Source: a virus
Taxonomy: Duplodnaviria; Caudoviricetes
Direction: 5' to 3' (one strand)
Length of the DNA: 45,777 nt
Virus record (IMG/VR): IMGVR_UViG_3300037755_000534
Coordinates: 1-45,777 of that record
In this document: positions 1,058 to 18,968 of the stretch, in pieces
How the letters are laid out: each line of letters opens with the position of its first letter
Numbering within the stretch: the stretch's first letter is position 1
The notes under the pieces: model-generated
Databases searched by the model: none
What the model was told of the DNA's origin: nothing
What the model saw: only the letters and a program-made list of their open reading frames with translations
Translations under genes and position numbers: made by a program

Positions 1058-1458
1058 GGCACTTTCTGATTACAAAGAACGGCGTCGCGCGCGTGATGAC
1101 CTGCCGGGACGACACGGACGGGGCCGCCGAGGTCGCGAAATGGCACCCGGACGATCAGGCGCAGGTGACGGCAATCCGCGAGATTTCGGAGGCTGATATT
1201 CCTGCCGAGGCCGACCACTACCTGCGGGATGGGTGGGAGGACGACGGCGGGAAGATCGTCGTCAACATGATCAAGGCCCGCGCGAGCTTCAACAAGGCCG
1301 TTCGGACTGCGAAACTCGCCAAGGCGCGCGAGCTTCAGCTTCGCGAGGACATCGGCGAGGACGTGACGGCGGAGCGGGCGGCGCTGACTGTGACCCCGGA
1401 CCTGGCCGGCGCGGACACGCCCGCCAAGTTAAAGGCGCTGTGGCCGTCAGCCCGCTAG
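1054..1458 (+). CDS. probable tail fibre assembly/chaperone protein, allele A
   Basis: ATGA-coupled to the fibre; ..LRDGWE..IVVNMxKAR..LKALWP C-terminus typical of fibre-associated proteins. Confidence 0.6.
   Translation: MRHFLITKNGVARVMTCRDDTDGAAEVAKWHPDDQAQVTAIREISEADIPAEADHYLRDGWEDDGGKIVVNMIKARASFNKAVRTAKLAKARELQLREDIGEDVTAERAALTVTPDLAGADTPAKLKALWPSAR
1282..1389 (+). repeat. 108-bp exact match to the window end (45670-45777)
   Basis: gcgagcttcaac...gcggcgctgact identical at both places; first mismatch at 1281 c / 45669 t. Confidence 0.9.
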
Positions 1459-1641
1459 GAAAGCGTCGAAGCCTTGTAGATCAAACCCAGCCAAGTAGCC
1501 CCGAAGGCACTGGTTGAACGTCGCCGCCGCATCGCCGTTTGGAGCGATTGGTTGAGTAAACCCGCGACCGTCCGACGTGGCGACCTTGATCTGCCCGGCC
1601 CCGTCTTCGGTGTCGATTTGAATCGTGATCTGATAAAGCAT
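1447..1641 (-). CDS. small hypothetical protein (64 aa)
   Basis: GGGAGG RBS and two upstream TATAAT hexamers (1670-1682). Confidence 0.6.
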   Translation of the reverse strand: MLYQITIQIDTEDGAGQIKVATSDGRGFTQPIAPNGDAAATFNQCLRGYLAGFDLQGFDAFLAG

Positions 1642-1765
1642 AGCCCATCCTCCCCAATGTCACACCGTGATTATACATTATAACCACGCCGGGCTAAACT
1701 AAGTTTTTGACAGTTCGCATCGTTCGTGTGTATCGTGCCGTACGTATCGCACACGGGATGATCGC

Positions 1766-1861
1766 ATGTCGTTTGTTCAAGCCATCACCACCTTCACCAT
1801 CGGCGAGGCCGCGATCGTTATCCTGATCTGCGTCCTGCTGGTGAAGGTGGGGCGTAAATGA
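1766..1861 (+). CDS. small single-TM protein (31 aa), lysis cassette
   Basis: MSFVQAITTFTIGEAAIVILICVLLVKVGRK, ATGA-coupled to next gene; TTGACA-18-TATCGT upstream (1707-1736). Confidence 0.5.
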   Translation: MSFVQAITTFTIGEAAIVILICVLLVKVGRK

Positions 1862-2133
1862 AGTCGGACATTGATTGGGATCGTCTTTGCAACGCGCCGG
1901 GAATCATCTTCTTTCAACGGTGGTTTATCGGGGTCGGCACCGTCGTCTCCGCGGCCGCCCTTCTCGCGACTTGCACCGTGTTTATCGACATGCGCGACGC
2001 AACGAAAGACCTGACCAAGGCGTCGGCGCGCATCGAGGCGAGCATAGGCGACCACGAAAGCCGGCTGCGATCATTGGAGGGCAGTCGGGATACATATCGG
2101 GACACAACCCGCGCGCCGGAGCTTAAGAAATGA
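1858..2133 (+). CDS. membrane protein with TM helix and coiled coil, lysis-associated
   Basis: Hydrophobic FIGVGTVVSAAALLATCTVFI, then heptads (DHESRLRSLE); precedes the endolysin. Confidence 0.6.
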   Translation: MKSDIDWDRLCNAPGIIFFQRWFIGVGTVVSAAALLATCTVFIDMRDATKDLTKASARIEASIGDHESRLRSLEGSRDTYRDTTRAPELKK

Positions 2134-2438
2134 TCAGTTTCAAGCCGGGCGTCGACGTCGCCGGGATCCGCCCGGAGATCATGCTGGCGCTGTTGGTCGC
2201 GCAGGGCGCCTACGCTCCGTATGACGTTATCGTGACCAGCGTGCGCGACGGCAAGCACAGCCTCACCTCCCTGCACTACGCGGGTCAGGCGGTCGACCTA
2301 CGGACCCGGCACGTTCCCGACGATCAGCACCAGGCGATCCGCGACCGTCTCGGCGATGCGCTGACGATCGATTACGACGTGCTGCTCGAGGCGGATCATA
2401 TCCACGTCGAGTACCAGCCGCGGCGGCGCACCCCGTGA
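2130..2438 (+). CDS. endolysin, peptidase M15-type Zn peptidase
   Basis: SLHYAGQAVD (H-x6-D) and HIHVE motifs. Confidence 0.8.
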   Translation: MISFKPGVDVAGIRPEIMLALLVAQGAYAPYDVIVTSVRDGKHSLTSLHYAGQAVDLRTRHVPDDQHQAIRDRLGDALTIDYDVLLEADHIHVEYQPRRRTP

Positions 2439-2617
2439 CCGTCAGGCTGCGCGCAATTCGCAAGCTGGTGGTGGCGCTCGTCGGCGTCGGGGCGATCCTG
2501 GCGCACCGGTATCTCGACGTCGACCTTACGGGGCTGGAGCCCGCCATCGTCGACGCGGTTCTCGCCGGGCTCACCGTGGCCGGCGTCTACGGCATTCCCA
2601 ACAACCCCGAGGTTTGA
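2435..2617 (+). CDS. putative holin (2 TM, 60 aa)
   Basis: Two hydrophobic segments; GVYGIPN ending; adjacent to the endolysin. Confidence 0.6.
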   Translation: MTVRLRAIRKLVVALVGVGAILAHRYLDVDLTGLEPAIVDAVLAGLTVAGVYGIPNNPEV

Positions 2618-2973
2618 CCATGTTCCGCAACGCAATCGCCGCCGTCCTGCTGCTGATCGTCTCGTCGTGCGCCAGCTTCGAAGCGGAGACGCCCGGTCAG
2701 AAAATCTACGCGATTCAGGGCGAGTTCAACACTTACATGGTCGCGGCGCTCAAGTACACGACGCTCCCCACCTGTCTCGGATCGACGGTCGTCGGCTGTT
2801 ACGACCCGAAGGTCAAGGACAGTATCGTGCGGCTGGCGCGCGACACGCGCGGGGCGATTGCCACGGCGCGCATGTATCTCGACGCACCGACGGCCGGCTC
2901 GTACGTCGCGCTCGCGGGGACGGCGCTTAACAAGCTCGCCGTCTACATGGCGAGTAAGGAGATACGACCATGA
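2614..2973 (+). CDS. lipoprotein, possible spanin component
   Basis: Signal peptide with lipobox LLLIVSSC; located in the lysis cassette. Confidence 0.55.
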   Translation: MTMFRNAIAAVLLLIVSSCASFEAETPGQKIYAIQGEFNTYMVAALKYTTLPTCLGSTVVGCYDPKVKDSIVRLARDTRGAIATARMYLDAPTAGSYVALAGTALNKLAVYMASKEIRP

Positions 2974-3176
2974 GCCCGAGTAGCGCGCTGCTGATCATTC
3001 GGTTGATCGATCTCCTCGCGCTCGGGATGACTGTCGCCCCGGAGATCATGGCGCGATACAGCGCGCTGCGTGACAAGGTGCGCCAGATGGTCGAGGAGGG
3101 CCGCGACCCGACGCCCGAGGAGTGGGCTGCGATGGACGCGGAGACGTCGGACCTGCTCGGCAAGCTGGCGGGCTAG
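2970..3176 (+). CDS. hypothetical protein (68 aa), lysis cassette
   Basis: AGGAGA RBS; overlaps previous stop; hydrophobic N-terminus. Confidence 0.6.
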   Translation: MSPSSALLIIRLIDLLALGMTVAPEIMARYSALRDKVRQMVEEGRDPTPEEWAAMDAETSDLLGKLAG

Positions 3177-3382
3177 ACCGCCCCCATTGGTGTCCGCATA
3201 GCGCGCGGCGATCCCGCCGTACCCCAAGACATGAAATCCGCCCGGCAGTCCTGATCGCAGGCTGCGCGCCTTACTTTTGGGACGGCTTGCAACGCGTCGT
3301 CGTGCGTCGGGTACGGGCCGGCGATCAGGAACTTTTTAGTCCCATCGATCGCGGAGACGTAGAAGTGAGCGGCGGGGCTCAT
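3173..3382 (-). CDS. hypothetical protein (69 aa), promoter-driven cassette 1
   Basis: MSPAAHFYVSAIDG.., ATGA-coupled to 3379-3579. Confidence 0.6.
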   Translation of the reverse strand: MSPAAHFYVSAIDGTKKFLIAGPYPTHDDALQAVPKVRRAACDQDCRADFMSWGTAGSPRAMRTPMGAV

Positions 3383-3656: not shown

Positions 3657-5603
3657 ATCCAATAATTTTGTTGCCTCCGATATATACCAAGAGTAGTTAA
3701 CATTTTCCCAACGAAAATCAGACGCGCGGTTGCAAACCGTGACCGTCCATCCGGCGCATATCTGCATCCGGCGTTCGGCATGCGTGCTTTTGTTTTTCGT
3801 GTGAACGTCGGGATTCCAAACGGTGTTGTCGGTCGCCCTGTACAACGCGTCCGACACGCTCGCGCCTTTCTTGTAGTGACCAACCGTGCAGCCGGCCGGC
3901 GGCGGGCTCACCTTGACCAGCGGCGCGCCGTCCGTGCTCACGTAATAGCGGGTGGTCGCCTGCACCTGGCGATCGCCGTGCATGAGGTGCGAGCCGCGCG
4001 GCGCCTTGGCGCGCAGCATGAAGTCGAACGGATCGTCGGCCCGCTCCATCATATACACCTCGACGCCGGGCACAGCGCCCGTCAGGACCGCCTCCGCTGC
4101 CTTGGGCACCACGAGCGCGCTTGTGTCCTGGTGCCAGCCGAGCGGGTTGCGGTCGCCCGGGAGCGCCGTCTCGTATGCGCCCTTGCGCTTCACCTTGCCC
4201 GCCTCGCTGACGGCGAGATAGTTGTTCACGTCGCGGATATACATATGGGCATAGCGGGACTCCTCGAGCGCCATGCCGGTTACGCCCTGCCACCAGTCGC
4301 CGGCGTCCTTCACGAGCCACTCGAAACGCCGCGGGACGCGCACGGTGAGCCCGTCCGTATTGATCTGGATCATTTGCAGCCCGGGCACCGTGGCCATGAG
4401 CCGCTCGGCCAGCATGCAGAGGAGAAGCTGCCCGTTGACGGTAATCGCCATCGTGTATTGGGAGTCGTAGAACGGGCTATAGGGATTGTTGCTATCGCCA
4501 TAGACGCCGTTCAACGCGAGCTTGAGCATGGCGTTTTCGGGCGTCCCCTTCGGATAGCCACGCCGCTGATTCATGACGTCGGTATAAATATCGCAAAAGA
4601 GCTCGCCCAGGTGCGCCGGGTACAGGCGGTTGGCGATGGCGATCGACGGGTAATAGCTGGTGACGTCGAGATCGATGATCGCGTGCTCGTCGTCGGCGCG
4701 TACGTGCTGGCGCGCAACGGACCCGTGGATCCCGCCGGTCCCGAAGTCGAACCGGAAGCCATCCACCTCGCACGAAACGTCCGTAATTGCGCCCTTCGTC
4801 GTCGTGATCACCTGCTCGCGGAACCACGACCATATGCGAATGAACTCGGGATGGGCGAAGCGGATCGTCGGCAGGATGATGTCGGCGAGCCTGATCTCGC
4901 CGCGGTACGTCTGCACGGGGCGCCGCGGCTGGCCCGCGTAGCAGCTTCCCGGGCGCGCCTCCTCGAGCCGCATGACGAAATAATCCTTGCCGATCTTCGT
5001 ATCGTTGTGGTTCAGGAAGTCGCGCCCGTACCTGGCGGACAGGGCGCGCCGAAATTCGATCTGCTCGCGGCTGTGATTGTAAAACGCCTTCGTCTCGGTG
5101 ACGTCGTGCATGTTGTAGGCGCGCAGCGTCTCGACCTGCTCGCGCGTCAGCCACTTGCCCGGTTCGAACGGCAAGTCCTCTACGGACGGCGAGCGCATGT
5201 TGAACTGCAGCGCCTTCAAGCTGGTGGCGCGCGCCACGTTATTGAAGTGATGAATCAGGAAAAGGTCGATCTGCGGGATCCACCTGTCCGACTCCCATAT
5301 CGTATGGGCGAACCGGTCGCCGTCCCCGCTTATGATCGCCATCGCCTTTTCGTACAGCGTGTAAGGCGTCGCCGCGGCGGGGTTGCTCAACAGCAGATGG
5401 ACGACGGGATAATCGAAACCGATATTGTTGAAACCGATCATCTCGACGCGGTTCTGCGCCAGGTGGTGAAGCCACGCGAGCAGCGCCGGCCGGTCGTCCC
5501 GGTACTCGGAAAATTCCCAGCACGCGGCGACGTCGGTATCGCAGCCGACGGCGCTCAACGTAAAGACGTTGGGGTACGTCTCGATATCGTAGATGATGGG
5601 CAT
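3654..5603 (-). CDS. DNA polymerase family B with 3'-5' exonuclease (649 aa)
   Basis: YDIET (ExoI), FNNIGFD (ExoII), YNMHD (ExoIII), DVTSYYPS, KLALNGVYG and NTDG motifs. Confidence 0.9.
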   Translation of the reverse strand: MPIIYDIETYPNVFTLSAVGCDTDVAACWEFSEYRDDRPALLAWLHHLAQNRVEMIGFNNIGFDYPVVHLLLSNPAAATPYTLYEKAMAIISGDGDRFAHTIWESDRWIPQIDLFLIHHFNNVARATSLKALQFNMRSPSVEDLPFEPGKWLTREQVETLRAYNMHDVTETKAFYNHSREQIEFRRALSARYGRDFLNHNDTKIGKDYFVMRLEEARPGSCYAGQPRRPVQTYRGEIRLADIILPTIRFAHPEFIRIWSWFREQVITTTKGAITDVSCEVDGFRFDFGTGGIHGSVARQHVRADDEHAIIDLDVTSYYPSIAIANRLYPAHLGELFCDIYTDVMNQRRGYPKGTPENAMLKLALNGVYGDSNNPYSPFYDSQYTMAITVNGQLLLCMLAERLMATVPGLQMIQINTDGLTVRVPRRFEWLVKDAGDWWQGVTGMALEESRYAHMYIRDVNNYLAVSEAGKVKRKGAYETALPGDRNPLGWHQDTSALVVPKAAEAVLTGAVPGVEVYMMERADDPFDFMLRAKAPRGSHLMHGDRQVQATTRYYVSTDGAPLVKVSPPPAGCTVGHYKKGASVSDALYRATDNTVWNPDVHTKNKSTHAERRMQICAGWTVTVCNRASDFRWENVNYSWYISEATKLLD

Positions 5604-5605
5604 AG

Positions 5606-5800
5606 GGTGTGGCAGTCGCTAACGGAACGTCGCGGAAAGCCGCGGAGTCCGAAATTGCCACACCGGGCGGTAAGTGCTTGAAGTTACGGGAAAATTGTAC
5701 CCCGCCCCTGGGCACCACCCTATCACCAGCAGCGTTGATTTCATTGCGTTATTTCCGCTCATTTGCCACACCTTCGCGCACCGGGGCGTCGGGTGTGGCA
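5606..5800. other. attP: core CCGCCCCTGGGCACCA (5702-5717) plus four arm-type repeats
   Basis: Core resembles the 3' end of alphaproteobacterial tRNA-Phe(GAA); GGTGTGGCA at 5606 and 5792, inverted at 5656 and 5764; downstream of integrase. Confidence 0.8.
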
Positions 5801-6033
5801 GTTTCGTTCGGGGTTTGTCTCAGAAGATAGAGGTATCGAGTCTCCAGTAAGGCGACGCGCCGCTCGATCGCCTCTAGACGATCCTCGCGGAATGTTCTTT
5901 CGATCCGATTCAAAATCTCGACGTTCATCGACACGCCGTGCCCCTTCGCGGCTTTTTCGATTTGCGCGCGCACCGACTCGGGCATCCGCAAAGGAAGTTG
6001 AGCGCGACCTGATTTCGTCCTTCGGGTTGGCAT
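5749..6033 (-). CDS. Arc-like ribbon-helix-helix DNA-binding protein
   Basis: QLPLRMPESVRAQIEKAAKGHGVSMNVEILNRI Arc signature. Confidence 0.8.
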   Translation of the reverse strand: MPTRRTKSGRAQLPLRMPESVRAQIEKAAKGHGVSMNVEILNRIERTFREDRLEAIERRVALLETRYLYLLRQTPNETATPDAPVREGVANERK

Positions 6034-6034
6034 C

Positions 6035-7129
6035 TTATCCCGTCCTCTCCGTATCCGTGGTGCCCGCCAGGAACCGCACACCCTCCGCGGTCATGCGGTC
6101 GCGGTTGGCTTTCTTCGCGTAGTGCGCTGCCATCTTGGCCGACGTCCAGCCGAACAGCGCCATCATCTGATATTCGGTCGCGCCGCGCTCGGCGCAGCGG
6201 TTGGCGCCGGCCTTGCGCAGCCCGTGCGCCGAGCACTGCGGCAAGCGCGCCTGATCGCACCACTTGCGCATCCTGTTGCCTAGCCCCGCCACGGTGAACG
6301 GCTTGCCGAACGTCGTCACAAGGTAGGCAAGGTGCCCGCTCGGCGTCGCGTCGATCGAGCGGCGCAGGTCGGGCAGGATCGGGATGCGGCGATGCTTGGG
6401 CGCGCGGTTGCGCCCCTTGTGCTCGGTGAACACGAGCGCGCCGTTCCGTTCCATCTGCGGCCCGAGACGGTGCGCATCGGAGCGCCGGACGCCAGTGTAC
6501 AGGAACAGGTCGAGCGCCAGGCGCGCCATCGTGCCGACCGGGTGACGCTCCTCGTACTGCTGTATTTCCGCTTCCGACCATTCGTGAAAGCCGTCGGGAT
6601 TGTTGCCGCTCAGATAGGACACCTTGAGCGCCGGGTTGTCTTCGACGAGCTCCTGCTCCAGCGCCCATTTGTAAAGCTGCCTGATCGCCTTGATCATCCC
6701 GTTCGCCGCCTCGGGCGTATCGGCCCGGTCGTCGCGCAGCTTGCGGACGTGGCGCGGCAGCAGCGCCTTGTATGCGCCCGTCCCGATGCGCGCGCACACG
6801 CGATCGAGGATGGCGCGGCGCACGGTGCGCGTCGATTTGTCGAGCCGGGTAAAGGCGGGCGCCTGATAGTATTGCTGACACAAGCCGGTCAGGGAGTCCG
6901 CGGCGGCGCGTGGTGCGCGGGGCACGGCGGCAACCGTGGCCATCACCTCGCCTGCCAGGATGCGCCGGTGCTCCTCGACAAATTCACGGGTGCCCGGTTC
7001 CGCGGTGAGCCGGCCGATACGCTGCCCGGCGACGCGCACGTAATAGCGCACGCCGCCATGACGTGTACGATTGCGCTCAACGTACTTTAGGTTGACGCTG
7101 CCCGTGCCGTCGGTGAGATCAAAGCGCAT
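6035..7129 (-). CDS. int: tyrosine recombinase/integrase
   Basis: TGVRRSD, HGLRK and GW..MAAHY catalytic motifs; next to attP. Confidence 0.92.
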   Translation of the reverse strand: MRFDLTDGTGSVNLKYVERNRTRHGGVRYYVRVAGQRIGRLTAEPGTREFVEEHRRILAGEVMATVAAVPRAPRAAADSLTGLCQQYYQAPAFTRLDKSTRTVRRAILDRVCARIGTGAYKALLPRHVRKLRDDRADTPEAANGMIKAIRQLYKWALEQELVEDNPALKVSYLSGNNPDGFHEWSEAEIQQYEERHPVGTMARLALDLFLYTGVRRSDAHRLGPQMERNGALVFTEHKGRNRAPKHRRIPILPDLRRSIDATPSGHLAYLVTTFGKPFTVAGLGNRMRKWCDQARLPQCSAHGLRKAGANRCAERGATEYQMMALFGWTSAKMAAHYAKKANRDRMTAEGVRFLAGTTDTERTG

Positions 7130-7140
7130 GGGGTGTGTCG

Positions 7141-8073
7141 CTACTCCGTGAGTGCGAACCGTTGAGGGGAGTCGGGCATACGACCGCAGGCCTTGTCGGC
7201 AACATGGCCATGGCCCTCACTCCCCTCAACGATCTTGTCGTACGTCGCCTGCATGTCGGCGTCGAACGCATCCAATATATCGGCGGGCACACGTGGCCTA
7301 GTCCTATCGGACATCTCTTGAACGGCCCGCCGCCACGCAACCCAAAGGTCGCGCAGAAACTGTTTTTCCATGTATCGCTGCGCCCGCCTGTGGATATGAC
7401 CGTCCGACATGAACTCAGCGGCGCGCGCCTTGGGTATCTTCGCGGACGGCGCGACAGTGAGCCCCGCCGCTTCGGCCTGCTGGCGCTCGTAATCCTTGCG
7501 CGCCAGGTAAATTTCACGATACGGCCCTTGCGCCTTGAGCATGGAGTCGCCAATCGTCCACATGCGGGATCGGCGCTGGCGGTTATACCCGTGCTCGATC
7601 CACGCAGCGGCAGGTGCGTTCTTTGACAGTCCGCCTTGCCGCACGTCGCCGACGACGGCCACGCCCATGCGCTTCCACAGGTGGCCTTTCTTCGGGTAGT
7701 TGCTCAGGTCTCCAGCCTCACCGACGATCACGGCGAGCGACCGCGCGCCGCAACCCCTCGTATCCTTGGCCCAAGCGTCCCACACGGGAAGCTGCTTAGC
7801 GAGCCGTTCCATTTCCTTCGCGGCGGCTTTCTCGACCGCATCGAACGGGGCGCGAGCGGCAAGCGACGCGGCGATCACGGGCGCCCATTCGTCCGTCGGG
7901 TTCGTGACCAGCGCCTTTGCCTCCTCTGCAATGCGCTTGCGCTCGGCGTCGGGGAGTGACCGCGACCAACCGAGTTGTATCCGCAGGAAGGACAGCAGGG
8001 ACAAGTCTGCGCGCTTGCGCTGTTCCATCGCATAGTTGCGGGTGCGATGGTGGTAACGGATTTCTTCGATCAT
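7141..8073 (-). CDS. IS110/Nop-domain RNA-binding protein without RuvC/HNH (TasA-like)
   Basis: GCGARSLAVIVGEAGDLSNYPKKGHLWKRMG resembles the IS110/Nop GxG..AEIGD..F..L..G segment; N-terminal coiled coil; HIHRRAQRYMEKQFLRDLW helix; no DEDD domain; AGGAGA RBS. Confidence 0.8.
   Translation of the reverse strand: MIEEIRYHHRTRNYAMEQRKRADLSLLSFLRIQLGWSRSLPDAERKRIAEEAKALVTNPTDEWAPVIAASLAARAPFDAVEKAAAKEMERLAKQLPVWDAWAKDTRGCGARSLAVIVGEAGDLSNYPKKGHLWKRMGVAVVGDVRQGGLSKNAPAAAWIEHGYNRQRRSRMWTIGDSMLKAQGPYREIYLARKDYERQQAEAAGLTVAPSAKIPKARAAEFMSDGHIHRRAQRYMEKQFLRDLWVAWRRAVQEMSDRTRPRVPADILDAFDADMQATYDKIVEGSEGHGHVADKACGRMPDSPQRFALTE
7160..7231 (-). ncRNA. TIGR-like guide unit 5 (spacers tggccatgt / gcggtcgta)
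   Basis: CCA-N9-TGCCGACAAGG-CCT-N9-TG inside a perfect 13-bp stem (7160-7172/7219-7231). Confidence 0.75.
7281..7332 (-). ncRNA. TIGR-like guide unit 4 (spacers ttcaagaga / ggccacgtg), more degenerate
   Basis: CCG-N9-TGTCCGATAGGA-CTA-N9-TG inside 8-bp stem cggcgggc/gcccgccg; compensatory loop hairpin. Confidence 0.65.
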
Positions 8074-8093
8074 CGGTCAGTCTCCTAAAGGGC

Positions 8094-8138
8094 GGGGCAT
8101 CAAGATCATGGCCTTATCGGCAGTAAACCACTGGCCCC
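8094..8138 (-). ncRNA. TIGR-like guide unit 3 (spacers gtggtttac / tgatcttga), intergenic
   Basis: CCA-N9-TGCCGATAAGG-CCA-N9-TG inside a ggggc/gcccc stem. Confidence 0.75.
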
Positions 8139-8141
8139 TAA

Positions 8142-8774
8142 TTACATGCTGCTCGTATACGTTCCGGGCGCGGCGCGAAGCGGCTTGTCGTAACCGATCG
8201 GGCTCGCCTCCGAACTCGCCGAGTCGATCATTTGATTCGCAAGGTCCGGGCGGATAACGTCGCGCACCTTGGCGTCTTTCGGAATGTGCGCCTGCTTGTC
8301 CACATGGGATTTGATCGTGTGCAACAGATGATGTTGCCGCGACGTTATCCACGCGGTGCGCCCCGTGGTCGCGATCAACCGGGGAAGCGCGTCGACCGGA
8401 ATATCGCCCAAAACAAGCCCGGCGCCGCCTGCGATGCTGATCTTGAACGTATCGAGCACCGACTGCGCCGCCGCCGCGCGCGCCGTGCGCGCAGCGTTAC
8501 GGGCGGCAACGGACGGTTCGCGAGGGGCGGGCAGGCGTCCACTGGCCTTGGCGGCACTGGCGCTTTGGTCCGCCTCCTCGCGATAGGGTTGCCGGGTGAG
8601 GGGCAGTGAGCAGCAGGCCTTATCAGCAACGTTCAACCGGTCCTTCTCACCCGACAATTCGATTAACTCATATGCGCGCTGTACCGTTCCGCCGTTGGCG
8701 AGGTACTTCGCAAGCGCAATAAGAAACTCGTTTTCCAGCGGGCTCACACCCGCGCGTATAAATGCGTCACGCAT
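8142..8774 (-). CDS. hypothetical protein (210 aa) hosting two guide units
   Basis: GAGGAG RBS; directly downstream of promoter 8799-8833. Confidence 0.7.
   Translation of the reverse strand: MRDAFIRAGVSPLENEFLIALAKYLANGGTVQRAYELIELSGEKDRLNVADKACCSLPLTRQPYREEADQSASAAKASGRLPAPREPSVAARNAARTARAAAAQSVLDTFKISIAGGAGLVLGDIPVDALPRLIATTGRTAWITSRQHHLLHTIKSHVDKQAHIPKDAKVRDVIRPDLANQMIDSASSEASPIGYDKPLRAAPGTYTSSM
8518..8583 (-). ncRNA. TIGR-like guide unit 2 (spacers aagcgccag / gtggacgcc)
   Basis: CCA-N9-TGCCGCCAAGG-CCA-N9-TG inside stem tcgcgagg(a)ggcgg/ccgcc-cctcgcga. Confidence 0.75.
8589..8657 (-). ncRNA. TIGR-like guide unit 1 (spacers gttgaacgt / gctgctcac)
   Basis: CCG-N9-TGCTGATAAGG-CCT-N9-TG inside 12-bp stem ttgtcgggtgag/ctcacccggcaa (one G:U on minus strand). 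Confidence 0.75.
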
Positions 8775-8798
8775 TGCTCATCTCCTCTGTACCCGCCT

Positions 8799-8833
8799 TA
8801 TATACACCGTTCGTCCTAGGGCGTCAAGCCCTA
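8799..8833 (-). promoter_or_regulatory. repeated promoter/operator, copy 2 (heads the Tas-like cassette)
   Basis: TAGGGC-TTGACG-17 nt-TATATA. Confidence 0.8.
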
Positions 8834-9076
8834 ACCGAGCATGGCGTCTATTTGGTCCGCGCCCGTGTCGCCGCCCCGTTGCGGCAGGTTGTCGAACGCC
8901 ATGTCGAGCGCCTGACGATCCCATATCGTGCGCCGCCCTACAATGCGCGGCTCGGGCATCCGACCGTCCGTCACCATCGCATCGAAAACCGTCGTGCCGA
9001 CGCCGACATAGTGCGCCGCCTGCTCGCGCGTCAGCCCGCGCGGTTCGATGGGATGATGGTGACGGACGGTCGTCAT
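8831..9076 (-). CDS. excisionase/AlpA-like winged-HTH protein
   Basis: RGLTREQAAHYVGVGTTVFDAMVTDGRMPEPR..RRTIWD; upstream of integrase. Confidence 0.8.
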   Translation of the reverse strand: MTTVRHHHPIEPRGLTREQAAHYVGVGTTVFDAMVTDGRMPEPRIVGRRTIWDRQALDMAFDNLPQRGGDTGADQIDAMLG

Positions 9077-9084
9077 GGCGCTGC

Positions 9085-9939
9085 CTACTGCGTCGGGCCG
9101 GGGCCGTTCAGGATCTGCGGGTACGGCGCCGGCATCGGGGCCGCTGTAGCGCCCGGCTGACCGTTACCAGGATATGCAGTCGGTTGCGCCTGATATCCCG
9201 CAGGCGCCCCGGGCGTCGGGGCCGGGGCAGTCGCGGCGGGTGCAACTGGCGGCTGGTAGGGCGGTGGCATACCGGGCGCGGTAGCGGCGGGATAGCCGGG
9301 CTGACCACCCGCCGGCTGCATAGGGGACGCCGGCATGGGACCGGACGCGACGGGCGTCGGGCTCGCGCCGGGCGGAAGGGCGGCGGGCTGGCCGAACGCC
9401 TGCTCGGGACTCGGCCCCGTGCTGATCGCCTCGCCGTAGCCGACGACCTGCACCATTTCGTGCGAGACGTAGACGCCGGGCTTCTGCAGATCATCGTTCC
9501 CGCGGACGTTGATGAACGCGCGGATATAGTCGCCGCGCTTGATCTGCGAGGCATCCGTGATCTGCTGGTTTTGCGCGTTGAAGATGCGCGGCGCGAAGCC
9601 CGACGACATGCGGATGATGTAGTGGCCCTTGCAGTAGTCCGGGTACGGCTTGCCTTCCTGATTTGTGCCGTCCCCGTCGACGACCTTCCACGCGAAATTG
9701 GGCTGCTGCCACTGCCCGGCGGGAAAGTCACGCTGGCCGACGGCGACGATCTGTCCCCATATTTCGTTCCATGCCGGATCGTTCTTGGGGATCGCCAGTC
9801 CGACGAACCATGTCGTCTTGGGCTTGCCGGCCTTGTCGAATTTCGGCCGGCCCTGCGCGTCCTTGTCGGACCCGTTGAACGCGTCGCCCATGACGAAGCG
9901 CCCGACGGGCGTTGTTACCTTGATTGCTTCCTGTGCCAT
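9085..9939 (-). CDS. ssDNA-binding protein (DUF2815/T7 gp2.5-like) with Pro-rich tail
   Basis: TTPVGR..DGD..I.RG.YIRA..GVY..VQVV..GE pattern; next to the exonuclease. Confidence 0.7.
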   Translation of the reverse strand: MAQEAIKVTTPVGRFVMGDAFNGSDKDAQGRPKFDKAGKPKTTWFVGLAIPKNDPAWNEIWGQIVAVGQRDFPAGQWQQPNFAWKVVDGDGTNQEGKPYPDYCKGHYIIRMSSGFAPRIFNAQNQQITDASQIKRGDYIRAFINVRGNDDLQKPGVYVSHEMVQVVGYGEAISTGPSPEQAFGQPAALPPGASPTPVASGPMPASPMQPAGGQPGYPAATAPGMPPPYQPPVAPAATAPAPTPGAPAGYQAQPTAYPGNGQPGATAAPMPAPYPQILNGPGPTQ

Positions 9940-12211: not shown

Positions 12212-12379
12212 GTGACCAAAATATGTCAAAAATACGAACTGCAAGCGGTCGTTAACTATCGTAAACGACCCGCAACAGTTGTCGGCCGCTGTTATGTGTC
12301 GAACGAATGGCTATACGACTTGCGCCTTCCGAGCGGCAAGATCGTGCAGTACGTGCCCGAGCGCATGGTGACGGCGTGA
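12212..12379 (+). CDS. small hypothetical protein (55 aa)
   Basis: AAGGA RBS, GTG start, GTGA-coupled to the methyltransferase. Confidence 0.5.
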   Translation: MTKICQKYELQAVVNYRKRPATVVGRCYVSNEWLYDLRLPSGKIVQYVPERMVTA

Positions 12380-13731
12380 GCACCATCGCCACCAAGGTCG
12401 GGGAGACGACCGTATTCAACGGGGATTGCCTCGACGTCATGGCCACGCTGGCGGCGCTCGGGACGCGCGTCGACTCGATCGTGACGGACCCGCCGTACCA
12501 CCTGAGCACGGTCAAGCGGTACGGCTCCACAAACATGACGCAGCCGGCCGACAAGGATTTATCGAAGGTCAACGCAGGGCAATACAAGCGACTGGCCAAG
12601 GGCTTCATGGGGAAGGAATGGGACGGCGGCGACATCGCGTTCCAGGTTGAGACGTGGCGCCGGTGCTGGTCGCTGCTCAAACCGGGCGGCTACCTGCTCG
12701 CGTTCAGCGGGAGCAGGACGTATCACCGCATGGCATGCGCGATCGAGGACGCCGGGTTTGAAATCCGCGACCAACTCATGTGGCTGTACGGGACGGGGTT
12801 CCCCAAGAGCCACGACGTGAGCAAGGCGATCGACAAGGCGGCGGGTGCGGAGCGGGAGGTTGTGGGTACGTATCAGTCGCCGGAAGGGACGTCGGGGAAA
12901 AGCAACCATCAACCGCGCATCGGGACGTCGACTCGCATCGGTGGGCTACCTGAGCTCACCGCCCCCGCCACGGGCGCCGCGCGTCAATGGGACGGATGGG
13001 GCACCGCGCTAAAGCCCGCGCACGAGCCGATCGTCATGGCGCGCAAGCCGCTCGACGGCACGGTCGCGGCGAACGTGCTGCAGCATGGCGTCGGCGCGAT
13101 CAATATCGACGCGTGTCGGGTGGGGACGGACAGCATCGTCACTACGGGGCGTAGTGACGAGAAACACGTCAAGTCGAACAGTCTCGGCGCATCGTGGTCC
13201 GGCGTTGTTGATGCGACGCCTAGAGTCGGCCGTTTCCCCGCGAACGTCATGCACGACGGGAGCGCGGAGGTGCTCGAGGCGTTCGCGGCGTACGCTACGC
13301 CACGTAAAAAGGCCCGTGTGCTCATTGAACATGATGACGGGCGAACCGAATGGAAGGTTGCGGACGAGGTTGAAAAACTCGTCGAGAAAATGGCTCCATC
13401 CGACGGCCTGCAAAATACCGCCGCACGCTTCTTCTACAGCGCCAAGGCGTCCGCCAAGGACCGCGCCGGCTCCAAGCATCCCACCGTAAAGCCCGTCTCG
13501 CTGATCGAATACTACGCAACGATGGTGACGCCGCCCGGCGGGCTGGTGCTCGACCCGTTCGCCGGGAGCGGGACGCTCGGCACGGCCTGGCCGCACTCGA
13601 TCCTGATCGAGCGTGAACCGGAATACTACGCGGACATATTGAACCGCCTGAGCGGCAATCCCGCCCCGCCCCGCCCCGCGGGACGAAAGATTTACGGCGT
13701 CTTTGCGGACGAAAAGCAGCCTAGGGAGTGA
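12376..13731 (+). CDS. DNA N6-adenine/N4-cytosine methyltransferase (beta class)
   Basis: GDC, TDPPY, HPTVKP, DPFAGSGT motifs. Confidence 0.9.
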   Translation: MSTIATKVGETTVFNGDCLDVMATLAALGTRVDSIVTDPPYHLSTVKRYGSTNMTQPADKDLSKVNAGQYKRLAKGFMGKEWDGGDIAFQVETWRRCWSLLKPGGYLLAFSGSRTYHRMACAIEDAGFEIRDQLMWLYGTGFPKSHDVSKAIDKAAGAEREVVGTYQSPEGTSGKSNHQPRIGTSTRIGGLPELTAPATGAARQWDGWGTALKPAHEPIVMARKPLDGTVAANVLQHGVGAINIDACRVGTDSIVTTGRSDEKHVKSNSLGASWSGVVDATPRVGRFPANVMHDGSAEVLEAFAAYATPRKKARVLIEHDDGRTEWKVADEVEKLVEKMAPSDGLQNTAARFFYSAKASAKDRAGSKHPTVKPVSLIEYYATMVTPPGGLVLDPFAGSGTLGTAWPHSILIEREPEYYADILNRLSGNPAPPRPAGRKIYGVFADEKQPRE

Positions 13732-17780: not shown

Positions 17781-18088
17781 GCCGACCGCACGCCTGGGTT
17801 TATCACACGGCGGCGTGGTTGAAGATGCGGGCCGAACAGTTGCGCAAGGAACCGCTGTGTCGGTACTGCGGCGCGATGGGGTGGACCGTACCGGCGACGA
17901 CCGTCGATCACGTTACGCCTCATAAGGGCGACAGGAATCTAGCGTTCGATGCGGACAACCTGCAATCTTTGTGCAAGGATTGTCACGATCGACACGCGCA
18001 GGCGAAGGACAAGGGGCAACCGGTGGCAGGGTGCGACGCGGACGGATACCCGCTGGATCCGGGGCATAAGTGGAGCAGCGATGCGTAA
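17777..18088 (+). CDS. HNH endonuclease, HK97 gp74-like (terminase-associated type)
   Basis: W...R..QL.KEPLCRYC..ATTVDH..H.GD..NLQSLCKDCH..GCDADGYP. Confidence 0.8.
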   Translation: MSRPHAWVYHTAAWLKMRAEQLRKEPLCRYCGAMGWTVPATTVDHVTPHKGDRNLAFDADNLQSLCKDCHDRHAQAKDKGQPVAGCDADGYPLDPGHKWSSDA

Positions 18089-18968
18089 AGTTCCTCGCAT
18101 TTGGTACAACGAAAACGACCCGAACGCCGCGAACTGGCTGCGCGTGCTGATCGCGTGCGGGCACATAGCGCCGGGCGTCGTGGATGAACGGAGCATTGAA
18201 GATGTACGACCAAGCGACCTTGCCGGATTTATCCAATGCCATTTCTTCGCCGGGATCGGAGGATGGCCCCTCTCCCTGCGGCTCGCCGGATGGCCCGACG
18301 ACAAGCCCGTATGGACGGGGAGTTGTCCGTGTCAACCTTTCAGCGGCGCAGGCGCTCGCCGTGGGACTGATGACGCGCGGCACCTATGGCCACACTGGCG
18401 ATGGCTCGTCTCGCAGTGCGACCCTCCAGTCGTCTTTGGAGAGCAGGTTGCGAGCGCGGATGGGCGCAAATGGCTCGCCGGAGTACGTGCTGACCTGGAA
18501 GCACTGGGATATGGAGTCGGGGCCGCCGATCTGTGCGCTGCGGGCGCGGGCGCCCCGCATATCAGACAGCGCCTATGGTGGGTGGCCGACTCCATGCGGA
18601 CAGGACGGGCCGAAGGGCGGACCGGGACAAGGGACGGATCGCCTTCCGGGCTGTGCCCAACTCGCCGGCTGGCCGACCGCATCGGCGCGCGACTGGAAAG
18701 ACACCCCGGGCATGGCCACAACTGGCGTGAACCCGGACGGCTCGATCCGCAACAGGTCGGACCAGCTTCCACGGCAGGCGGCGCTTGCTATTGGGGAGAA
18801 TACGACATTATCCCCTGCACCGACGACCGGTCGCGGCGCGTTGAACCCGGCACATTCCCGCTGGCTCATGGGGTACCCGGAAGAATGGGACGATTGCGCG
18901 GTTACGGCAATGCTATTGTTCCCGAAGTCGCGGCGGCGTTCATAGAGGCGTTTACATGCGCGCCCTAG
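18081..18968 (+). CDS. C5-cytosine DNA methyltransferase, alpha chain
   Basis: FFAGIGG (I), SCPCQPFS (IV), EQV (VI), HIRQR (VIII), YGNAIV (X). Confidence 0.85.
   Translation: MRKVPRIWYNENDPNAANWLRVLIACGHIAPGVVDERSIEDVRPSDLAGFIQCHFFAGIGGWPLSLRLAGWPDDKPVWTGSCPCQPFSGAGARRGTDDARHLWPHWRWLVSQCDPPVVFGEQVASADGRKWLAGVRADLEALGYGVGAADLCAAGAGAPHIRQRLWWVADSMRTGRAEGRTGTRDGSPSGLCPTRRLADRIGARLERHPGHGHNWREPGRLDPQQVGPASTAGGACYWGEYDIIPCTDDRSRRVEPGTFPLAHGVPGRMGRLRGYGNAIVPEVAAAFIEAFTCAP
18202..18945 (+). CDS. alternative-frame beta chain of the C5 methyltransferase (start uncertain)
   Basis: Nested +1-frame ORF with WPTP/WPTASARDWK repeats and LNPAHSRWLMGYPEEW (motif IX-like). Confidence 0.65.
   Translation: MYDQATLPDLSNAISSPGSEDGPSPCGSPDGPTTSPYGRGVVRVNLSAAQALAVGLMTRGTYGHTGDGSSRSATLQSSLESRLRARMGANGSPEYVLTWKHWDMESGPPICALRARAPRISDSAYGGWPTPCGQDGPKGGPGQGTDRLPGCAQLAGWPTASARDWKDTPGMATTGVNPDGSIRNRSDQLPRQAALAIGENTTLSPAPTTGRGALNPAHSRWLMGYPEEWDDCAVTAMLLFPKSRRRS

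Follow-up and report, generated by a model that had tools for sequence, protein, structure and literature searches.

Can a phage gene carry, within its own reading frame, the guide RNAs used by the protein encoded next to it? The question is raised by a 45.8-kb virus record (the window, that is, the whole stretch of 45,777 nucleotides analysed here), in which five hairpin units lie in and around two adjacent minus-strand genes, orf210 and tasA. The record encodes a terminase, portal, capsid, tail, polymerase, and integrase, and by this gene content it is a temperate tailed phage. The host is likely an alphaproteobacterium, since close relatives of the gene under study occur in Mesorhizobium, Aminobacter, Hyphomicrobium, and Zhengella genomes. 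An assembly error was ruled out because the contigs of a separate sediment run, five overlapping pieces spanning 6622-9015, are letter-identical to the window (zero differing letters). The reading that I prefer, with a probability of about 0.68, is a two-gene cassette (partner gene, then tasA) whose transcript would comprise both messages and the precursor of five guides. The features are as follows, with the units given from box C to the last box D.

8831-9076, minus strand: upstream excisionase-like/HTH gene (PHROG 25900, 597, 66)
8142-8774, minus strand: orf210, conserved partner gene of tasA, 210 aa
orf210, about residues 1-49, minus strand: helical N-domain
orf210, about residues 45-85, minus strand: linker with two tigRNA units
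orf210, about residues 86-190, minus strand: C-domain, folded in the model
8640-8604, minus strand: unit 1, CCG-N9-TG, 9-nt loop, CCT-N9-TG, with a flanking stem; read in frame within orf210
8568-8532, minus strand: unit 2, CCA-N9-TG, 9-nt loop, CCA-N9-TG; lies 72 nt beyond unit 1 and is likewise in the frame of orf210
8134-8098, minus strand: unit 3, intergenic, short stem, directly 5′ of the tasA ribosome-binding site
7141-8073, minus strand: tasA, 310 aa, Nop domain without an N-terminal nuclease, 63-residue tail with units 4 and 5
7325-7288, minus strand: unit 4, 10-nt loop; the W-R-R-A codons that close the Nop domain form the 5′ arm of its stem
7213-7177, minus strand: unit 5, with a long stem, read in frame within the tasA tail
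6035-7129, minus strand: tyrosine integrase (PF00589), beginning 11 nt past the tasA stop

The cassette is thus flanked by the excisionase-like gene and the integrase gene, and AGGAG precedes the ATG of orf210. A GGAG overlaps the tasA stop just 5′ of the integrase start, and processing of unit 5 could influence integrase expression in this phage (6035-9076). The integrase was rejected as a general partner of the cassette; two of the 59 long loci contain a relative, counting the window. The neighbours of 80 picked ORFs have mixed phage functions. The phage also carries two DNA methyltransferase genes, at 12307-13731 and 17949-18968 (N6/N4 and C5 types).

Each of the five units consists of box C, 9 nt, box D (TG), a loop, and again box C, 9 nt, and TG, with complementary arms flanking the boxes. 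All five thus have two spacers, each lying between a CCA-like box C and a UG box D. Units 1 and 2 are codons 45-57 and 69-81 of orf210, while units 4 and 5 are codons 250-262 and 287-299 of tasA. These coordinates agree with the first-pass annotation of the window, which had placed two units mid-orf210, one between the genes, and two in the tasA tail; the peptides it had read from the four coding units (ADKACCSLP, AAKASGRLP, SDRTRPRVP, and ADKACGRMP) are present in the translations, uninterrupted by stops. Its statement that they share one register applies exactly to the 3′ halves of the four units, but the first box C of unit 4 is off by one base because of the 10-nt loop and a CTA box. It had also held that repeat finders would miss such units; this was partly right, since three of the five were grouped at 62-70% identity, in addition to a pair of units 3 and 5. 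An Rfam search gave zero matches for the units. A strict generic pattern matched four times in the 1.5-kb region and five times in the window, versus 1.58 expected per simulated window. With a family-trained profile, whose training set of 109 sites included the five window units themselves, these scored 27.7-37.6 and the best other listed site at the locus 5.8. Units 2 and 5 fold better than shuffled sequences (z of -5.15 and -6.44), while units 1 and 3 fold no better than shuffles (-0.85 and -0.97) and unit 4 is also weaker than units 2 and 5.

What kind of protein is encoded by tasA? Its product matched TaTasR (9MTY) with a phmmer E-value of 4e-7 and SpTasH with 0.041, and ranks 1-10 of a Foldseek search were TasR/TasH chains (E-values of 4e-6 to 6e-5). 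A Pfam search of the product found no domain. The predicted structure starts with a long helix from residue 2, without an N-terminal RuvC/HNH domain, and is confident to about residue 250; the tail has a pLDDT of 42-80 and is partly drawn as helix. The conserved core ends at Trp247. The tails vary among 703 homologs, and in the best 120 the core is constant, while the post-Trp tail ranges from 4 to 143 residues where the Trp can be located. Judged by sequence and model, the 310-aa protein is a nuclease-free TasA. As a side observation, 83 mycobacteriophage records have a distant Tas-like gene (about 26-31% identity among the matches listed), and some of these genes are annotated as 'transposase'.

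Is orf210 a real gene? A word-based protein search with orf210 found a self-match alone, and relatives were therefore sought with tblastn and with profiles built from related loci. Of 123 dereplicated loci, 92 have a relative of orf210 directly upstream of tas; among the 87 loci having at least 1.2 kb of upstream sequence, the number is 78. In the reverse search, anchored on the partner, 23 of 23 viral loci have a tas gene within about 0.6 kb downstream; 13 of these 23 are contigs outside the earlier locus set (9 after the merging of twins). A C-domain profile matched 3,898 cluster representatives at an E-value of 0.001, as sequences alone without genomic context. pS exceeds pN in 13 of 13 C-domain pairs and 9 of 9 N-domain pairs, all hand-picked. 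When 887 ORF pieces were searched, matches to the N-domain profile shared an ORF with a C-domain in 23 of 23 cases, with linkers of 29-161 residues between the two domains in these loci. On the other hand, 69 of the 92 partners have no match to the window-type N-domain profile. The model of orf210 has a pLDDT of 89-97 in the N-domain, 47-64 in the linker, and 82-97 in the C-domain; the low-confidence stretch (residues 50-85) coincides with units 1 and 2, and the linker is predicted to be disordered. From this conservation, orf210 is a real gene tied to tasA, and its product probably serves the TasA system as a dedicated cofactor.

The partner resembles no family in the databases searched. For 67 partner proteins, Pfam, PHROGs, and NCBIfam gave no family beyond single weak matches, and none had a ParB match, so that a ParB-like companion was rejected. 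No relative was found among PDB sequences. A Foldseek search of the PDB and viral libraries gave no match to the partner at an E-value of 0.001, and all Atlas rows were below 0.9. The same partner-tasA pair was found in a cultured phage, Rhizobium phage RHph_X2_25 (E-value of 4e-14). There the pair (1232-3298 of locus L176, MW960032.1) is divergent from a repressor C gene, and four units have CG in place of TG as box D; two of them are intergenic, one lies in an N-terminal extension of tas, and one is downstream, while the partner is compact.

Are the units conserved as RNA or as protein? A scan for the motif plus stem found 516 units in 396 kb near tas genes versus 49 in 1,595 kb of control sequence, a rate by which about 12 of the 516 are expected to be false. 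The 9+9 spacing dominates among the relatives; the class with a 4-nt loop counts 375 near tas versus 6 in the control. The 4-nt loop occurs in 349 of the 516 units, hairpin loops of 9-10 nt are found chiefly in the clade of the window, and some related loci mix the loop classes. In 37 of 112 loci, a unit starts exactly 7 bases past the codon of the conserved Trp, the position that unit 4 occupies in the window; the next most common offset tested accounts for 5 loci. No stem filter was applied in choosing these 37 units, yet each of the four stem pairs adjoining the boxes (pairs 1-4) is formed in all 37, where the shuffle means are 34.1, 35.0, 23.4, and 17.7, and pairs 3 and 4 swap among G-C, C-G, and A-U. 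The codon overlapping this stem encodes R, E, Q, A, G, W, S, or D. All 37 have loops of 4 or 10 nt, never 9. The spacer pairs are distinct in 516 of 516 units, with near-even base use. Thus, the units are conserved as RNA, because the stems covary, the amino acids change, and all spacer pairs differ. Hypervariable spacers had been predicted in the first-pass annotation, and the outcome that was to speak against it, conservation at the protein rather than the RNA level, did not appear; the structure is kept and the peptide is not. The CUU motif at the stem base, a processing mark according to Xu et al. (bioRxiv 10.64898/2026.09.09.750476), was not enriched, as no position exceeded 17 of 512 units; among the window units, a CUU is adjacent to the stem solely at unit 3.

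Within open frames, the units are biased in phase. The counts of box C in the three phases are 0/7/73 in partner linkers, 0/70/17 in tas tails, and 2/29/82 in open N-terminal extensions of tas, versus 30/32/33 downstream and 26/27/23 between genes, outside open frames. The distance between neighbouring units is a multiple of three in 43 of 49 cases in linkers, 27 of 35 in tails, and 13 of 51 downstream. These phase and spacing classes were defined on open frames, by which stop-bearing cases are removed, and the related loci share ancestry, so that the phase counts are not independent events. Of 157 non-coding units, 135 are free of stops in one phase and nearly as many, 126, in another, while linker units with a 4-nt loop use one phase in 39 of 39 cases; thus, the single linker register is not due to stop avoidance alone. 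I infer that in-frame duplication under selection for the frame yields this register. The 113 units in open frames 5′ of the tas core show the strong bias of 2/29/82, and many annotated N-terminal extensions of these TasA proteins are therefore translated guide arrays. With the frames under selection (pS above pN, and phase) and the units kept as RNA structure, neither of the two outcomes that were to refute the first-pass annotation appeared in the comparison, and the dual coding that it put forward is supported.

The number of units was expected to vary by in-frame indels, and this was found in related loci, where gain or loss inside genes occurs as whole codons. Partners have 0 to 6 units, and partners are longer by about 23 aa for each unit that they contain (rho 0.78, n = 69), although unit counts in partners are underestimates (one was scored for the window, for example). 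A length ladder among 141 of 150 listed partner relatives is weak (R of 0.20, best period 27.5 aa). No unit was scored in 39 of 69 partners, an undercounted set, and therefore embedding is not needed for the cassette. In a tree of 67 TasA cores, one clade has unit-free partners in 30 of 31 leaves, whereas 28 of 36 leaves in the clade of the window have partners with units. The tree is midpoint-rooted and the rooting does not give the direction of change; unit gain in one clade is the simpler reading of these sequences.

Targets were predicted in the geometry of spacer A followed by the reverse complement of spacer B (Faure et al. 2025, PMC12045711, Table S3). The best match of the window units in their own phage genome has 3 mismatches. 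Against 1.25 Mb of related loci, the 516 units gave no exact match and two one-mismatch sites in the right geometry, as in controls. Four units of a Zhengella prophage had none within 1 mismatch in 2.68 of about 4.3 Mb of the host genome. In a control run, unit 2 of the window (8568-8532) had one exact 18-bp match in an unrelated Zhengella host genome, at 1186-1203 of locus L259 (G003:C14:61186-61203). The site falls close to the 3′ terminus of a small gene that immediately precedes a threonyl-tRNA-synthetase-like gene, and a TTGACA follows some 30 bases later; from their protein sequences, I take the two genes to be yidD and thrS. In that genome, the 516 units have one exact match in the right geometry, one in the control geometry, and five in 10,320 shuffles. 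The target of unit 2 has no exact match in 400 other genomes, where one-mismatch sites number 21 versus 16 in the control, and none of 12 inspected is in the same gene. The exact match, noticed post hoc, within the family-wide rate, and not conserved, is probably due to chance.

How does the cassette relate to known systems? By the defining features that sequence and models could address, it belongs to the stem-loop TIGR-TasA family: a Tas-related Nop protein without RuvC/HNH, two spacers (8-12 nt in the family) each bounded by box C and box D, variable spacers, and a variable palindromic stem. It shares with TIGR-Tas, as the text of Faure et al. (PMC12045711) describes it, a Nop-only TasA, CCA and UG boxes, 9-nt spacers, a phage location, and an operonised companion gene. 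The TasA-TasParB systems in the same text have a ParB-like companion and dual-repeat arrays upstream, downstream, or between the genes; in contrast, the partner here has no match to ParB or another family, and stem-loop units lie inside its frame. There is also a close likeness to the BlTasA type in the text of Xu et al. (10.64898/2026.09.09.750476), with box C/N9/box D twice inside a stem and extended hairpin loops. Xu et al. reported intragenic stem-loop tigRNAs in the tas coding sequence, including the 3′ end, and their in-frame units occupy 5′, 3′, or internal places in disordered regions, as here; processing of an intragenic unit and repression by TasA were shown by them at other loci, and a possible link between maturation and translation was suggested. 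The CUU motif, not enriched here, is a trait of their clade rather than a definition of the family. Units in a non-tas partner gene set the present cassette apart, since the text of Xu et al. names neither such a gene nor such units. The first-pass annotation had considered the architecture not to be the described norm; for units inside tas this is superseded by Xu et al., while units in orf210 were not found in print. In the main texts covered, neither a partner gene nor units in any gene other than tas came up, and the covered portions of 10.64898/2026.08.11.744272 and PMC13421893 likewise mention neither. What was not found in print is thus a conserved non-ParB partner of tasA with guides in frame; units inside tas are known.

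Since four of the five units are in frame in orf210 or tasA, one transcript is likely both message and guide precursor. If this TasA behaves like those already characterised, each unit would yield a single guide RNA, a TasA dimer would bind it, and spacers A and B would pair with opposite strands of an 18-bp DNA site. TasA binding without cutting would then block transcription. A cut at units 1-2 or 4 would leave no full-length partner or TasA; because units 1 and 2 separate the two partner domains and the start of unit 4 is within the final helix of the Nop domain, a transcript cut there would lack a stop codon. If guide release depends on TasA, the intact message would dwindle as TasA rises, and the cassette would thereby contain its own negative feedback. 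Autoregulation by cleavage of the message, which the first-pass annotation had proposed, is plausible from the arrangement of the units. Eukaryotic box C/D snoRNAs are intronic and are released from host transcripts by splicing. They share with this cassette the release of a guide from a protein-coding transcript and a binder with a Nop domain, whereas here the guide is translated and the predicted target is DNA.

Would any such cutting matter to the phage? A possible alternative, which I do not favour, is that units simply duplicate where they are tolerated; selection would merely keep the frames open, and cutting of the message would have no regulatory weight. The units are confined to parts of low constraint (partner linkers, tasA ends, and gaps) at 0 to 6 per partner, and one register per site fits in-frame duplication. 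Against this, the fixed position and covarying stem at Trp+7 suggest more than random landing, and processing must cost message unless the guides are transcribed apart. The opposite proposal, that autoregulation is the selected purpose and that units are placed so that TasA excision or binding shuts its own operon, seems doubtful. A unit that overlaps the final helix of the Nop domain at a constant position (37 of 112 loci), unit 3 abutting the tasA ribosome-binding site, and the requirement of Tas for tigRNA accumulation in dual-repeat systems (text of Faure et al., PMC12045711) are in its favour, but compact partners with units elsewhere are found in 30 of 31 leaves of one clade and in RHph_X2_25, 171 of the 516 units lie outside open frames, and the stem-loop Tas described in the text of Xu et al. 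(10.64898/2026.09.09.750476) lacks the Y/H processing dyad. Moreover, the first tail unit of tas is read through in 46 of 50 cases, not clearly above the expected 86% or so, and selection against stops in the tas tail is weak.

It is improbable that the embedded guides come from internal promoters, with message and guides as separate transcripts of the same DNA. Xu et al. state in their text (10.64898/2026.09.09.750476) that their own data cannot exclude such promoters, but here they would have to sit inside two constrained genes, and no sigma-70-like site was found in 5600-9200 on both strands where 1.1 are expected, which is a weak test if the host is, as seems likely, an alphaproteobacterium. 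An IS110-type transposase with hairpins as bridge-RNA loops is hinted at by PHROG 4285 'transposase' (E-value of 2e-26) and by IS110 recombinases in the fold search (E-values of 0.09-0.24), yet it is very hard to believe given the TasR/TasH top ranks by sequence and fold, the helix from residue 2 that leaves no room for an N-terminal nuclease or recombinase domain, the absence of a Pfam match, and five separate units with ten different spacers; an IS110 bridge recombinase has an N-terminal DEDD RuvC-like domain and a single bridge RNA, and neither was found. A protein-repeat origin of the units, or orf210 as a chance ORF over a non-coding array, which the lone self-match in the word search and the lack of a Pfam, PHROG, or NCBIfam family might suggest, can be set aside, since profiles yield thousands of relatives with domains under purifying selection, stems covary as residues change, and units outside genes occur in all phases.

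The preferred reading, a partner-tasA cassette with one transcript for messages and guides, bears on questions left by the texts of Faure et al. 2025 and Xu et al. 2026, namely the job of the nuclease-free TasA, the maturation of stem-loop guides, and the origin of spacers. A partner tied to tasA in both search directions offers an immediate candidate for the factor still lacking in effector function, maturation, or acquisition, and this factor may be absent when TasA is tested by itself. Tests are practical, since the cassette is present in the isolates Mesorhizobium mediterraneum USDA 3392, Aminobacter anthyllidis LMG 26462, and Zhengella sp. ZM62, and the gene pair in a cultured phage. For annotation, upstream arrays can sit inside real genes, which concerns array finders and gene callers alike, and in-frame guide arrays are a codon-level record of unit gain and loss. 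A bolder proposal, which I regard as rather unlikely, is that this large phage branch of TasA works as an RNA-guided system that always needs two proteins, the second being a partner without a name or a known fold, which in the clade of the window would be a translated guide host gene, with feedback on both proteins. If this were true, each new guide would add whole codons to the partner and the reading frame would filter the choice of spacers, and the cassette would be the equivalent, in bacteria, of snoRNA host genes, with the difference that the guide doubles as codons.
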